64,000 nt of DNA from an uncultured Thermoplasmata archaeon. Its GTDB lineage: Archaea > Thermoplasmatota > Thermoplasmata > Halarchaeoplasmatales > Halarchaeoplasmataceae. Positions 135-61,477 of this stretch are shown piece by piece. The notes under the pieces are model-generated. The model searched no databases, had not been told where the DNA came from, and saw only the letters and a program-made list of their open reading frames with translations. Each line of letters starts with the position of its first letter. The stretch's first letter is position 1. The stretch is taken from positions 28,324-92,323 of the forward strand of contig CAYSTL010000001.1 in NCBI GenBank assembly GCA_964433785.1, given 5' to 3'. The translations under genes were made by a program, and so were the position numbers.

Positions 135-1802
135 ATGCAATTACCCTTAACAAATCAAATGATGAATTTAGCACTACAGATGGATGTAATCAGAGACCAG
201 GTAGACAACATCGTTGACAAATTTTGGGAAATAGTTCCAGGGATACTATTTTTCATAATTTTCATAATAATAGGTTACGTTGTAGGAAAGATAGCCTCAG
301 TGATCTTCAGAAAATTCTTGGAAAAAGTAAAGTTCGAAAAGGCTATGGAAAAAGTCAAGATCAGTAAACACTTTAAGAGCATAGGTTTCAAGAGTACAGC
401 ACACTTCTTGAGCATCTTTGTGTTCTGGTTCATATTCCTGATATTCCTGCAGATCGGTCTAGGTGCGATAGAGATACAGATAATCACAGATATACTATCC
501 CCGATAATACTCTTCATACCAAGAGCGTTGATCGCAGCATTACTGATAGTTATAGGCCTTTACATTGGAACATTGGTTGCCGATATCGTAGAAAAAGCAC
601 TGAACAAATCAGGTCTAAAGAGATCTACCAGAAGAATCGATGAACAGCTCAAAGGTACGAAGTACACACTATTCGGAATCCTAGGGATAATCATCAAGGT
701 ATGGATCCTTCTGTTGTTCGTACAGGCTGCTCTAGACGTTCTAGCGATTCAAGCATTGACTCAGTTTGTCACTCCAATAATACTCTATTTCCCAAGAGTA
801 GTGGTGGCATTCTTCGTGGTGCTTATAGGCCTGGTGATAGCTGATTATGTAACAGAAAAGATCAAAAATTGGCTCGAAGGAACACCTATGGGAAAAAGGA
901 TATCCAAGGCTGACGAGAAAACAACGACTGAAGGTTTCAGTATAATGAGTCTTGTACTCATATTCATAAAAGTATGGATACTTCTATTGTTCGTTCAAGT
1001 CGCACTTGACATACTAGCAATACCGATACTTACCAGAGTGATCGAACCTATACTGCTGTACTTCCCGAGAATACTAGTAGCGATGGCAGTGATAATCATC
1101 GGTTTACTAGTCACAGATATAATCATCAAGTTTGTCCACAAGCTATTAGATGAGTTCGAATCAGAGAAGTTCATAGAGCCTGTAGAAGACATAATCAAGA
1201 AACCAGGATTAGTGATGAAGTTCGTAGATGCCCTAATCAAAGTTACAGTGATGCTGATATTCATCGATATCGCAGTAGCAATACTTGGAATCGCAGTGAT
1301 AGCCAATCTCGTATCTGAAGTCGTCTTATGGATACCGAATCTTTTCGCTGCAGCCTTGATCGTGATAATCGGTCTTTGGGTTGCTGGATGGGTGTCCGAT
1401 AAAGCACTAAAGATGTCTAAGGATAACGAATTACCTTTCCCAAGAATCGTATCAAATGCCGTTAGATTCCTGATAATATACATAGTTATAACCATGGCAC
1501 TGGCACAGTTAGGTATCGAAGTACCTATCCTTTACCTTGTCTTTGGAATCGCCTTCGGTGCAGTCATGATCGGTTTAGGCGCTGGTTTTGCCTTCGGTCT
1601 CAGAGACGTGATGACCAATATAGGTGGATATCTGCAGGTGAATGAAATCGTAGAACCAGGTAAAGAGATCGAAGTGGGAGAGTACTCTGGAGAGGTGAAA
1701 AAGATAACAAGATACAATACTATAATCGAAGACGAGTTTGGAAATGAAAAAGCTATACCGAACAACTATCTGGTTGAGAACACAGTGACGATTAAAAGCT
1801 AA
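135..1802 (+). CDS. MscS-like mechanosensitive channel family membrane protein with four tandem conserved-TM-helix modules
   Basis: 555-aa ORF with a GGAGG RBS upstream of the ATG. Four hydrophobic modules, two nearly identical (IKVWILLLFVQAALDVLAI / IKVWILLLFVQVALDILAI). C-terminal EIEVGEYSGEVKKITRYNTIIEDEFGNEKAIPNNYL fits the MscS beta (Sm-like) domain pattern. Confidence 0.6.
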   Translation: MQLPLTNQMMNLALQMDVIRDQVDNIVDKFWEIVPGILFFIIFIIIGYVVGKIASVIFRKFLEKVKFEKAMEKVKISKHFKSIGFKSTAHFLSIFVFWFIFLIFLQIGLGAIEIQIITDILSPIILFIPRALIAALLIVIGLYIGTLVADIVEKALNKSGLKRSTRRIDEQLKGTKYTLFGILGIIIKVWILLLFVQAALDVLAIQALTQFVTPIILYFPRVVVAFFVVLIGLVIADYVTEKIKNWLEGTPMGKRISKADEKTTTEGFSIMSLVLIFIKVWILLLFVQVALDILAIPILTRVIEPILLYFPRILVAMAVIIIGLLVTDIIIKFVHKLLDEFESEKFIEPVEDIIKKPGLVMKFVDALIKVTVMLIFIDIAVAILGIAVIANLVSEVVLWIPNLFAAALIVIIGLWVAGWVSDKALKMSKDNELPFPRIVSNAVRFLIIYIVITMALAQLGIEVPILYLVFGIAFGAVMIGLGAGFAFGLRDVMTNIGGYLQVNEIVEPGKEIEVGEYSGEVKKITRYNTIIEDEFGNEKAIPNNYLVENTVTIKS

Positions 1803-3459: not shown

Positions 3460-3578
3460 TTTATCTCCTCTTTTGTTTCGCGGGTTTACATTACAAACAT
3501 CAGATAGTTAAATATATTGGTCAATTTCTAGGGATTATTTAAAGGTAAAATATTTACCGCCAGGGATCATGGAAAAGG

Positions 3579-3587
3579 TATAAATAT
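3579..3587 (+). promoter_or_regulatory. candidate TATA box of the 5S rRNA transcription unit
   Basis: TATAAATAT lies about 25 nt upstream of 3612, the first base of the long terminal helix. Confidence 0.4.
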
Positions 3588-3611
3588 CAGATGCCTTTAA
3601 AGAACCATAAC

Positions 3612-3845
3612 GAGCAACATGACGGCCATAGTGGTGGGGACACACCCGGTCCCATTCCGAACCCGGAAGTTAAGCCCACCCACGTCCTCTGTGGTACTAT
3701 GGTGCGCGAGCCCATGGGAAGCTTAGGTCCGATAGTGGACCCCTGGAACGGTGGCTTAGGTTAGGAGCCTTGTTCCCTTCGGGGAAGAAGGTAAACCTAA
3801 CTGTTTGAAGGCTATTTCCGCTCCCTGGCCCGCTGTCAGTTGCTC
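3612..3845 (+). rRNA. rrf: 5S rRNA, apparently enlarged by about 100 nt of extra structured sequence before the helix-I 3' strand
   Basis: Canonical archaeal 5S motifs at 3620-3725 (CCATAGTGGTGGGG, CCCGGTCCCATTCCGAACCCGGAAGTTAAGCCCACC, GGTACTATGGTGCGCGAGCCCATGGGAA). The 5' GAGCAAC-A-TGAC-GGCC (3612-3627) pairs only with GGCC-CGCT-GTCA-GTTGCTC (3827-3845). GC-rich island in AT-rich flanks. The mature ends are uncertain. Confidence 0.8.
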
Positions 3846-3846
3846 A

Positions 3847-3879
3847 CTTTTACTCTCCTTTACTTTTTAATTATTTTTC
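3847..3879 (+). terminator. oligo-T archaeal terminator region after the 5S unit
   Basis: T-rich tract with T5 runs at 3864-3868 and 3874-3878, immediately after the closing helix. Confidence 0.35.
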
Positions 3880-16742: not shown

Positions 16743-19700
16743 CTAATCTTTAGTTTTTAAATAATATATCGCAACAGAGATCATCATACCCATTATCAAA
16801 GCAATTACTAGATATCCGATTGAACCTATTCCATCCGACTTCCCTCCATCTCCCCCTTTAACTTTTATTTCAACAACATCAGTATCTGTGTTTCCTGCTT
16901 TGTCGGTAACTGTCAAATTGACCTTATAATTTCCCTTCTTATCGAATTCATGTTCTACAAACTTTCCATATTCACTCTCCCCGTCACTAAAGTTCCATTC
17001 ATAGCTTACTATTCCAATGTTATCAGTAGATCCAGAGCCATCAAGTGTAAATTTCTCCCCAATATCCACAGTTATATCATCTCCTGCATCTGCAGTGGGT
17101 GGTTCAGATGATCTAACGGAAACTTGTAGATGATCTTCATCCAGGTGTTCTCCTTTATCAAAAACCCTCAGATATACATCGTATTCACCTGGTTCTTCAA
17201 AAATATAATTTTCATTTTCTCCAAAAACCTTTTTATCCTCAATTATCCAGGTGTAATTCGTTAGCTCTCCATTGTCAGTGGATTTGGATCCGTCTAAAGT
17301 CACTTCTGCACCTGCTTCAGTAATTATATCTCCTCCAGCATCTGCAACTGGGGGAGTGGTATCTCTGACGGTCACGTTAAGTGAATCTGTATCAAAATTA
17401 TCACCATGATCGATCACTTTCAAGGTAACTTTATATCTGCCTGGATCCTCAAAAGTATAGGTTATAGATTCTCCTTGATAATTATAACCTTCTATGGTCC
17501 ATAAATAGCTCTTTATCCCGTAATCATCCCATGATCCAAAACCGTTTAAACTCACTTTTTCATCTTCGTCAGTTATGATATCATTACCAGCAACTGCTAC
17601 GGGATCATCAAAATCTTTGACAAAGACTTTAACTGTATCTGTATCCACATTACCTGCAGCATCCTTAACTTCAAGAGTTGCTTCATACGTTCCAATCTTT
17701 TCAAATCTATGTTTTACAGTTTTTCCATAAAGTGTTTCATCACCTATATCCCAGGTATAATTTACAATATCTCTATTGTCGTAGGAATCTGAAGCATCTA
17801 ATTTTACATCTTCTTTATAACTTATCGTTTTATCGTAACCTGCATCCGCTGTAGGATCTATCGTATCATGTGTTAGAAAATTGAATGAGTAAGGTGTTCC
17901 TTTATTTCCATACTCATCTTCAAAATCATATATCTTGACTGTGACTTTTTCATTAGGATTCCATTTTTCAACCGACCATACTGCTGTATCATTTTCATTT
18001 ATAGTGGTTTTCCAACCTAAGAACTCCCAACCACCCGGATCGGTTCCGTTGACCACTTTTAGTTCAGGTATTTTAGAAGTGTTCATCGATTTAGTAAATA
18101 CTACACTTACATCTTTATCAGAGTCTTTGATAAAGGAATTATCTTCAGGTGTGGTATTGAATATATTGATTTCTCTCAAACTTTCATACCAATGATCCCT
18201 TCGGTATGGATATCCATCACCTTGGTCAAATCTTATCAGATCAACTTGTTTTTCTTCTGTATCTACGGTTTTAGCCATGAATGGTCCCTGAGAGGAGAAT
18301 ACATGACCATATCTTTCATAGAAATGTATTATCGAATTGATCTCAGAGTTATACTGGTTTTGTGATAATGTGATGGGAGCGTTATTTTCTTCTCTCAGAT
18401 ACCAAGGCATCCAATCTTTTCCGGTCATATTTTCTAATGTACTGACAAAATCTTCACCCTGTGATTTTGACAGCCAGTGGATCCAGTTATCTGCTGTGTA
18501 ATCCCAACTATATGTACTACTATTTGATGGAATGAATGTCTCATTTTGAGTGACCAAAAACTGAGCAGCTTCGTAGAGCTGATGTGGAACTACCGGGAAA
18601 GTGTATTCTGTATAATACTTTCCTACCTCATCATCGATAGGAGAATTAAAGTTCCCCCATATCGTATAGGTTCCATTGTTTTCATCCCATTTAGTAGCAA
18701 CGATTGAATCGTACCATGGTTTAGCATCATTGCTGAACCCTTTATTGTACCATGTATTGTTTTCATCATCTTTGTAGACTAATTCTTTCATGAAAGCGTA
18801 ATTCGATATGAGATCTTTAAGAGTCAGATCGTGACCATCATGCCATTTACTCGTTTTTACATCATACATGACTTTTACAGCGGATCCTGTGTTCGAATCA
18901 ACATTTTCCCATCTCTGAATCTTTGTATTGTATTTTACAGCATCTTCAGGAACTGAAATATTTTTATCTAGGATCATCGCACCAGTTTCATTCTCATACC
19001 AGTGGTAATCCTTCACAACTCGATTTTTTTCACCGTTAGTTGTCCAGTCACATCTGAATGGGATCGGTTTACCTGTTCTAGGATGAAAGGCTGCTCCAGT
19101 ATCCATAAGCATCCGTTTCTGCTGTAATCCATATGGATGGGCAGAACCATCTATTTCATTCCAATTATCCCTGTATAAAGTACCCTGTGATGAATAGCTA
19201 GCGAACGTTAAATTATCTTTATAACTGTAAATAGTTCTAGGAGTAAAATAGTCACTCCATCCTGTAATAACATCAGTTACTGCTGTTTTGACTTTGTTTT
19301 TGTTATATGTGTAGTATTCGTTTTTAGTTGAAAGAAAAAGCCTAATCGATTCGTTTACACCTATTCTGGTTACTTTTTCCATATATTTCCAGTACTGATC
19401 GATACTGTTTATTTGGTTTTCATATAATCGCTTAGATATTCTTTCTAGTGTTTGATTTCCAGTTCCATTATATCCATAATTATAATCTGGATCATCTATA
19501 AAGCCACCTGGCATATAATCGTACCATCCAGCGTACATATGAGCGGGTTGTTTACTTTGATAATATTTAGCTGACTGACTTATCCACCTTCCTGTGTAAA
19601 AACTCCAATGTAAATCAGCGGGATCACTTCCCCAAACTATTGAACCATATCCATAATCAAATTTAGGCACATATGATTCTATGCCACATTCTTCTAGTAT

Positions 19701-51161: not shown

Positions 51162-51473
51162 TGCTAGGTCTAACCGGGGCGGTCGGCGTGCCCTTATACA
51201 CCGAAAGCGTCGATACGCGGGGGTGACGACCAGGGACGGTGTAATCAGCCCGTTGATGAGCCGGACCCAGACGATGAGACCTCGTCCTTCGGGATCAGAG
51301 GTCCATGGTGGGACAACCGGAGGGTTGTCTGCCATGGTTTGCCGTGCTGACCAGGCCAGGCCCGGAAGGGAGCAGCTGACGCATGGACTCCTGATGCTCG
51401 ATGGGTAGCGGGGTCGAGGATGGGTCTGGAGTTACTCACCAACGTGCTGAACACCAACCCTGGCGACCTAGCA
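51162..51473 (+). ncRNA. ffs: signal recognition particle RNA (archaeal 7S)
   Basis: 312-nt GC-rich island. The ends TGCTAGGTC and GACCTAGCA pair. Contains the helix-8 motif CAGGCCCGGAAGGGAGCAGC and GGTGGGA. Confidence 0.85.
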
Positions 51474-61399: not shown

Positions 61400-61477
61400 T
61401 GGTGGGGCCACCGAAATTTGAATTCGGGTGTCGGACTCCCAAAGCCCGAAGGATCGACCAAGCTACCCCATGGCCCC
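61400..61477 (-). tRNA. tRNA-Pro (anticodon UGG) with genomically encoded CCA
   Basis: The reverse complement reads GGGGCCA...CGGGC-TTTGGGA-GTCCG...CCGAA-TTCAAAT-TTCGG-TGGCCCC-A-CCA. Confidence 0.9.

Follow-up and report, generated by a model that had tools for sequence, protein, structure and literature searches.

The segment between positions 3612 and 3845 (plus strand) of the window, as we call the 64-kb stretch of DNA from an uncultured Thermoplasmata archaeon analysed here, constitutes a self-contained 5S rRNA gene of about 234 nt, almost double the usual size, whose 120-nt core is split by a 101-nt insert (positions 3726-3826). Comparison with related loci established this as a conserved, evidently expressible 5S gene carrying a structured insert between universal positions 104 and 105. 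We consider it quite probable that it represents a working, separately transcribed Thermoplasmata 5S gene with an expansion segment of the Halococcus type. A 5S gene with some 100 nt of extra structured RNA had been proposed in a first-pass annotation of the same DNA. This part of the proposal stood, since the unit and covariation within it recur in three relatives and the remainder is collinear with a normal 5S gene after removal of the insert.

An Rfam scan identified a single 5S rRNA in the 64-kb window (RF00001, positions 3618-3738, plus strand; 81.8 bits, E = 7.7e-16, gathering score 38). Helices II-V and loops C, D and E fit the Rfam 5S model above the gathering score. The core (3627-3725, plus strand), which comprises loop A, helices II and III with loop C, and helices IV and V with the loop E region, ends at universal position 104 and is 78-87% identical to insert-free 5S genes of related archaea. 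On the contiguous Rfam match, helix I has four non-canonical pairs out of nine and, consequently, the sequence 3' of helix V fails to close the molecule. The first-pass description of a normal archaeal core without a closing strand after helix V was thus correct. Standard helix I pairing is satisfied by positions 3612-3626 and 3832-3845 once the insert is skipped; standard annotation yields a 121-nt 5S ending at position 3738, with the wrong 3' end. In the whole-window scan, a 78-nt tRNA-Pro (UGG) predicted by ARAGORN at positions 61400-61477 (minus strand) fell below the Rfam tRNA gathering score.

The unit is set apart by its base composition, with a GC fraction of 0.58, whereas the flanking intergenic DNA has 0.27 and the window, AT-rich as originally described, 0.38. 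(An archaeal SRP RNA scoring 199 bits, at positions 51162-51473 of the plus strand, forms a second GC-rich structural RNA island.) The minimum free energy (MFE) of the 251-nt segment from 3605 to 3855 is -101.8 kcal/mol (z = -3.5), and none of 200 shuffled sequences folded equally well. No open reading frame of at least 60 aa was found between positions 3460 and 4023. A TATA box (TATAAATA, 3579-3586, plus strand) lies approximately 26 nt upstream of G3612, a spacing typical for archaeal promoters; its ATAAATA portion (3580-3586) is invariant in all four orthologous loci, in a flank that has otherwise diverged. Directly 3' of helix I, a first oligo-T run (3848-3851) likely serves as an archaeal termination signal and is followed by additional T-runs at 3858-3860 and 3863-3867. 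T-rich sequence at this place is common to the relatives, to the GC-rich group described below and to insert-free 5S genes. Of the TATA-like box and oligo-T tracts originally said to bracket the unit, the former was borne out; the first T-run turned out to be the one at 3848-3851. From the TATA box some 26 nt before G3612 and the T-runs starting at 3848, we infer a stand-alone transcript of about 235-240 nt. Driven by the conserved TATA box, transcription would begin a few nucleotides 5' of G3612 and stop at the T-runs past 3845; the two ends of the RNA would pair as a 14-bp helix I and the core would fold as usual.

RNAalifold analysis of four sequences, complemented by a pair-by-pair check, defined the outer helix as 14 continuous pairs between positions 3612-3626 (GAGCAAC-A-UGACGGC, the 5' strand of helix I) and 3832-3845 (GCUGUCAGUUGCUC, the 3' strand), both on the plus strand. 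A3619 is bulged in the window only and G3624-U3834 is a wobble pair. In the first-pass annotation, a 15-bp outer helix had been drawn between 3612-3627 and 3827-3845. The long terminal helix is real, but the CGCT bulge included in that drawing is unneeded, since 14 pairs form without interruption. The continuous helix leaves G3827, G3828 and C3829 (plus strand; universal positions 105-107) free to close helix V by pairing with C3687, C3686 and G3684, respectively. These three nucleotides are collinear with GGAUCGCUGUCC of the insert-free 5S gene in contig L086. When positions 3726-3826 are left out, GGGAAGCUUA and GGCCCGCUGUCAG become collinear with the normal 120-nt 5S of related archaea (for example, GGGAAGCCU-GGAUCGCUGUCC in L086), and positions 3827-3839 align with the 3' end that related 5S genes normally have. 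In the Rfam alignment, A3725 corresponds to universal (E. coli) position 104 and the GG that follows the insert to positions 105-106. Thus, rather than preceding the closing strand of helix I, between helix V and helix I, as initially thought, the insert interrupts the 3' strand of helix V, with A3725 on its 5' side and G3827 on its 3' side (universal positions 104/105). As GG follows each junction, its limits can be placed to within about 2 nt. Folding energies leave the choice undecided: -82.9 kcal/mol with G3827, G3828 and C3829 closing the helix, versus -83.9 kcal/mol with G3726, G3727 and U3728. Comparison settled the matter: the GC-rich group and Halococcus have no GG at the 5' junction, which leaves the GG behind the insert as the sole one able to close helix V.

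These data bear on the possibility that the outer helix is a precursor-processing stem, with a normal 5S ending near position 3738 and the extra segment being a trailer or a separate small RNA. The length of the helix, 14 bp as opposed to 9 bp in the Rfam helix I, could be taken in its favour. However, terminal helices of 12-13 bp, directly followed by T-runs, are also found in insert-free related 5S genes (L086). Furthermore, a molecule ending near 3738 would lack a proper helix I, as four of the nine pairs are non-canonical, and 3827-3839 align with the normal 5S 3' end. Finally, the segment by itself matches no Rfam family: a search with E values up to 10 returned no known RNA, just a lone 12-nt chance match. 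We regard this explanation as very improbable.

The expansion segment itself (3726-3826, plus strand), delimited by end-to-end covariance-model matches, is predicted to form a short hairpin and a long arm, which were recovered by both MFE folding and RNAalifold and are accompanied by covariation. P1 (3726-3741) is a 5-bp hairpin, GGUCC-GAUAGU-GGACC, identified in the MFE fold. The long arm is closed by P2, whose 5' and 3' strands (3745-3756 and 3810-3824) pair in both the RNAalifold and MFE structures. P2 is followed by an asymmetric internal loop in which UA (3757-3758; CA in the other groups) faces GUUUGAA (3803-3809; GUUACAAC in the GC-rich group and Halococcus), both sides being conserved. 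The distal part of the arm (3759-3802), again found by both methods, consists of P3 (3759-3765/3796-3802) around P4 (3767-3777/3782-3792), which is capped by a UUCG loop (3778-3781). All elements lie on the plus strand, and the junctions carry just 0-2 unpaired nucleotides. In the proposed structure, which the covariation supports, the 3' strand would detour between the helix V pairs U3688-A3725 and C3687-G3827 into P1 and the P2-P3-P4 arm with its conserved 2-nt/7-nt internal loop, so that helix V would become a four-way junction. Both the GGTCC/GGACC hairpin (3726-3741) and the composite stem-loop with UUCG (3760-3801) had been correctly located in the first-pass annotation.

The genes neighbouring the 5S unit in the window are archaeal (aIF2-gamma, S6e, Dph2 and MfnA), and the window's proteins are acidic (pI 4.2-5.2), ribosomal protein S6e excepted (pI 7.0). 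The source samples are soda-lake sediments, and runs ERR5414699 and ERR5414700 contain DNA of the organism. Elsewhere in the window, positions 135-1802 (plus strand) encode a 555-aa membrane protein with several internally repeated hydrophobic modules. In a search with one genome per species, the closest aIF2-gamma relatives were found in Thermoplasmata genome bins (94% and 80% identity), followed by Methanomassiliicoccales (61-68%). Three of the relatives at the 80% level (L005, L006 and L007) contain the entire 234-nt unit, 85-88% identical to the window's. As in the window, the aIF2-gamma gene is closely followed by the unit, which is encoded on the other strand so that the two converge. 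In the four-locus alignment, the conserved block begins with AACGAGCAAC and stops just past GTTGCTCAC; outside these limits the TATA box alone is kept. Thus, the insert is nowhere missing among these relatives: all three retain the complete unit between diverged flanks. In the remaining 76 loci, from more distant relatives, no 5S gene was found near aIF2-gamma; hence, these provide no insert-free orthologous locus for comparison.

A covariance model built from the L005-L007 inserts gave the window insert 88.9 bits. Among the four sequences (window and L005-L007), compensatory changes affect six base pairs of the insert stems, a signature that the first-pass annotation had proposed looking for in related genomes. 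They include G-C to A-U and A-U to U-A replacements in P2 and changes at four pairs in P3/P4. Helix I and P1 are invariant among these close relatives and thus show no covariation of their own there. In L001, an independent assembly of the same organism, nucleotides 3756-3845 are identical to the window within and after the insert, which excludes an assembly artefact. Short-read contigs from several assemblies (L001-L003, L088, L095 and L105) end inside the 5S or the insert. The idea that such breaks betray a second 5S copy was discarded: the three JGI contigs (L088, L095 and L105) represent the same syntenic locus from co-occurring related populations, and the breaks are better explained by rRNA sequence shared between populations, which tangles the assembly graph. 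An origin of the insert by partial duplication of the 5S, suggested in the first-pass annotation, was likewise rejected. The longest internal repeat is an 8-mer, GCTTAGGT, which was matched or beaten in 258 of 1000 shuffled sequences, and neither the GC-rich group nor Halococcus has the repeats.

The survey of JGI metagenomes with a 36-nt loop C pattern, by which divergent copies would be missed, yielded 24 loci. These included three of the window's clade, at the same syntenic position on contigs ending inside the 5S, several normal insert-free 5S genes, and eleven loci forming a GC-rich group (63-69% GC; contigs L084, L085, L087, L091, L092, L097, L099, L100, L101, L104 and L106). In the latter group, the 5S core is 86-89% identical to the window's and is interrupted, at the same site in helix V, by a 99-nt insert of different sequence. 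We found no published description of this insert in the literature searched. A PibD-type peptidase and an archaeal TFB are encoded on the GC-rich contigs; the named homologues closest to this TFB (78-85% identity) come under the label Thermoplasmata archaeon. A genome bin possessing this TFB, GCA_035283165.1 (L109), contains the same expanded 5S. Contigs L109-L112, likewise GC-rich, all carry the 5S with the 99-nt insert, at about 16850-17081. A giant ORF called in these contigs, starting at 17036 (15868 in L112), overlaps roughly the final 45 nt of the expanded 5S, whose full length probably went unrecognised at gene calling. Expanded 5S genes are currently overlooked in genome bins. The giant ORF measures about 1900 aa where full length on record, and its homologue in L101 has zinc ribbons, TPR and DUF11 domains. 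Separately, a SufB/SufD-like gene of 842 aa in L109-L112 (1776-4304 in L109) shows a faint LAGLIDADG match, compared to 481 aa in L113 (2471-3916), which suggests the presence of an intein in some GC-rich genomes.

Plain alignment of the window insert with the GC-rich inserts was not significant. Reciprocal covariance-model matches, however, provide strong support for their homology, as judged from gene sequences. A model of seven GC-rich inserts, run with filters off, recovered positions 3726-3826 end to end as the top match in the whole window (24 bits, E = 0.007; runner-up E = 9.7) and matched L005-L007 with E values of 0.002-0.016. Conversely, a model made from L005-L007 only found eight GC-rich inserts (those of L084, L085, L087, L092, L097, L100, L101 and L109) at 31-44.5 bits (E = 1e-9 to 5e-6), over a background of at most 13 bits. 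In the joint alignment, pairing holds in 97% of the cells and two-sided changes occur at 14 of 32 pairs, the alignment being model-fitted so that the counts lean towards structure; in the same model-fitted frame, both sides change across groups in three of the five P1 pairs and eight of the 17 P3/P4 pairs. At the place of P1, the GC-rich group has the equivalent hairpin CCUGCC-UUCG-GGCGGG and Halococcus has CCUC-GCAA-GAGG. All three groups keep AGG, and G.U...A.GG opposite it, unchanged (alignment A4), and the invariant positions cluster in the asymmetric internal loop and its flanking base pairs. A neighbour-joining tree from the core only placed the two insert-bearing groups together with bootstrap 180/200, a rough figure for so short a molecule. 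We infer that the window's lineage and the GC-rich Thermoplasmata lineage both received the module from a common ancestor.

Conservation over this range also weighs against the view that the locus is a decaying or silent copy, a normal 5S elsewhere in the genome serving the ribosome. The view has some basis, as our vision is limited to one 64-kb window, and some bacteria are known to possess normal along with expanded 5S genes, as well as 5S-like pseudogenes with inserts (PMC7812874). Yet those pseudogenes lack one or both termini and lie behind terminators (PMC7812874), neither of which applies to the window locus. Here, four species-level relatives have kept the TATA box, the terminator and both ends of the 5S intact while their flanks diverged, the stem substitutions are compensatory, and the same arrangement persists in a second lineage, the GC-rich group. 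Moreover, no second 5S with the loop C pattern was found in the metagenomes Ga0209341 and Ga0209751 (GC-rich group) and Ga0207421 (window's clade); in Ga0207421 all contigs end before the insertion site, so that they speak to the lack of an extra copy rather than to a lack of insert-free copies. We judge a silent copy to be rather improbable, and favour the working gene.

Large insertions are, to our knowledge, very rare in prokaryotic 5S rRNA. One of 108 nt was reportedly described by Luehrsen et al. in 1981 in the 5S rRNA of Halococcus morrhuae. Inserts of this type are also known from Halalkalicoccus, Halomarina and Halodesulfurarchaeum (PMC7530397, PMC7812874; Tirumalai et al. 2020; Stepanov and Fox 2021). 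The Halococcus insert, 108 nt, is located "between positions 104.1 and 105" (PMC7812874), that is, at the C108/G109 site of H. marismortui, where it creates a four-way junction with two extra helices (PMC7530397). The precedent invoked in the first-pass annotation was therefore apt, as site and predicted layout are the same and the size similar. As a haloarchaeal reference we used a plasmid-borne rRNA operon of Halococcus dombrowskii. Its 107-nt insert occupies the same junction (GGGAAAACUG / insert / GGUUCGCC) and, upon independent MFE folding, adopts the same layout, with a short hairpin, a closing stem, a loop with CA opposite GUUACAAC, a further stem and a larger apical domain. With the model of the GC-rich inserts, it was the top match at the exact insert coordinates (21 bits, E = 0.05). 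With a combined model, it was again the top match at the exact coordinates, at 17 bits (E = 0.1) over a background of about 15 bits; thus, combining the models did not improve the Halococcus score. An exact 13-mer, CCGTTACAACGGC, is common to H. dombrowskii and L084, and CCCAGG is also common with the GC-rich group; five of 2000 shuffles reached this score (p about 0.0025). Neither plain alignment of the window insert with the Halococcus insert (not significant) nor the L005-L007 model on the H. dombrowskii insert (no match) revealed a relationship. Taken together, these comparisons of gene sequences make a common origin of the window's module and the haloarchaeal insert probable, although the model scores are marginal and this link is weaker than that within Thermoplasmata. 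The first-pass annotation had regarded the window as an independent lineage. This is accurate for the host, whose lineage is separate from the haloarchaea. The insert, however, was not invented anew; it belongs to a structural family that includes the inserts of the GC-rich group and probably that of Halococcus.

By analogy with H. morrhuae, the segment would stay in the mature 5S and project from the central protuberance of the large subunit, leaving the core undisturbed; the conserved internal loop would then be its likeliest part to make a specific contact with a protein or 23S rRNA. The alternative is that the segment is transcribed and then removed, either as an intron with religation or as an intervening sequence that is cut out without ligation, in which case helix I would hold a 5' fragment of about 114 nt to a 3' fragment of about 19 nt. 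The 14-bp helix I could indeed hold two fragments together, the insert folds as an independent module, and, as pointed out by Stepanov and Fox (PMC7812874), expansion segments are indistinguishable from introns or intervening sequences on the basis of sequence alone. Archaeal rRNA and tRNA introns with bulge-helix-bulge (BHB) motifs resemble the window's case in that an extra segment lies within a stable RNA gene. Our scan of 3600-3860 for two 3-nt bulges separated by a 4-bp helix detected no BHB motif whose bulges fall on the 3725/3726 and 3826/3827 junctions. The 15 loose candidates would all fail to rebuild a 5S, and a BHB intron was thus dismissed. We know of no 5S rRNA intron. In addition, the distal internal loop is the best conserved part across core identities of 86-89%, and probably as far as Halococcus, which is unexpected for a spacer. 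In Halococcus, the insert at this site remains part of the mature RNA, as shown for H. morrhuae by sequencing of that RNA and by cryo-EM (PMC7530397, PMC7812874). Removal of the segment therefore seems unlikely to us, though less so than the other alternatives, and a retained expansion segment is preferred.

To date, large 5S insertions in archaea have been ascribed to four haloarchaeal genera only, all of one structural type, and the RefSeq survey by Stepanov and Fox listed archaeal expanded 5S solely in Halobacteriales (PMC7812874). Our full-text searches, in a literature collection of incomplete coverage, found no expanded 5S reported from Thermoplasmata. What passed for a rarity of a few salt-loving genera now extends to a second archaeal class, with the same site and architecture in two Thermoplasmata lineages. 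The proteins of the GC-rich group are non-acidic (pI 5.5-9.3 in a small sample), so that this lineage is apparently not a "salt-in" halophile and the module is neither tied to high salt nor a haloarchaeal oddity. Since a shared origin with the haloarchaeal insert implies either transfer between classes or great age, the question arises whether the module passed between the classes or is ancient and has been lost repeatedly. On a tentative note, one may imagine the module of about 100 nt as a laterally transferable rRNA element that moved between Halobacteria and Thermoplasmata, being accepted or tolerated at only one position of helix V, and whose loop binds a specific partner to give ribosomes a distinct property. 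Plasmid-borne rRNA operons such as those of H. dombrowskii could possibly have been the vehicle. In that species, rRNA operons with an expanded 5S reside on two plasmids (260 kb and 351 kb; NZ_CP095007.1, our L108, with the 5S at about 399-632, and NZ_CP095009.1); PLSDB lists no feature under the H. dombrowskii 5S match. For structural and binding work, the conserved asymmetric loop provides a well-defined place at which a contact may be sought.

In bacteria, 15 structural types of 5S expansion segments have been distinguished, with Thermoanaerobacterium among the carriers (Stepanov and Fox 2021; PMC7812874). Like the window insert, these are extra self-folding modules in an otherwise normal 5S, but they occupy other sites (for example, a bulge in helix III), differ in sequence, belong to a bacterial core and are frequently accompanied by normal copies. 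The Halococcus type differs from the window in several ways. The host of the window is a Thermoplasmata archaeon of 38% GC, not a haloarchaeon, and its 5S core is just 64% identical to that of H. dombrowskii. Its 5S gene stands alone, whereas that of Halococcus ends an rRNA operon, and the apex of its insert is a simple 5+5-bp stem with a UUCG loop in place of a larger domain. Retention in the mature RNA is documented for the Halococcus insert and predicted by analogy for that of the window. Direct similarity between the two inserts is undetectable, the link running only via the GC-rich Thermoplasmata group. This group differs from the window in its non-acidic proteins, its GC content of 63-69% and its neighbouring genes, SdhB and the giant protein; like the window, it has a free-standing 5S gene, an extended helix I, a T-run and an insert with the same four helices and internal loop at the same site. 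Features shared with the Halococcus type are the location in the 3' strand of helix V, between positions 104(.1) and 105, the size of the insert (101 versus 107-108 nt) in an untouched core, the short 5' hairpin and long arm predicted to produce a four-way junction, and an asymmetric loop of 2 nt facing 7-8 nt (GUUUGAA here, GUUACAAC there).
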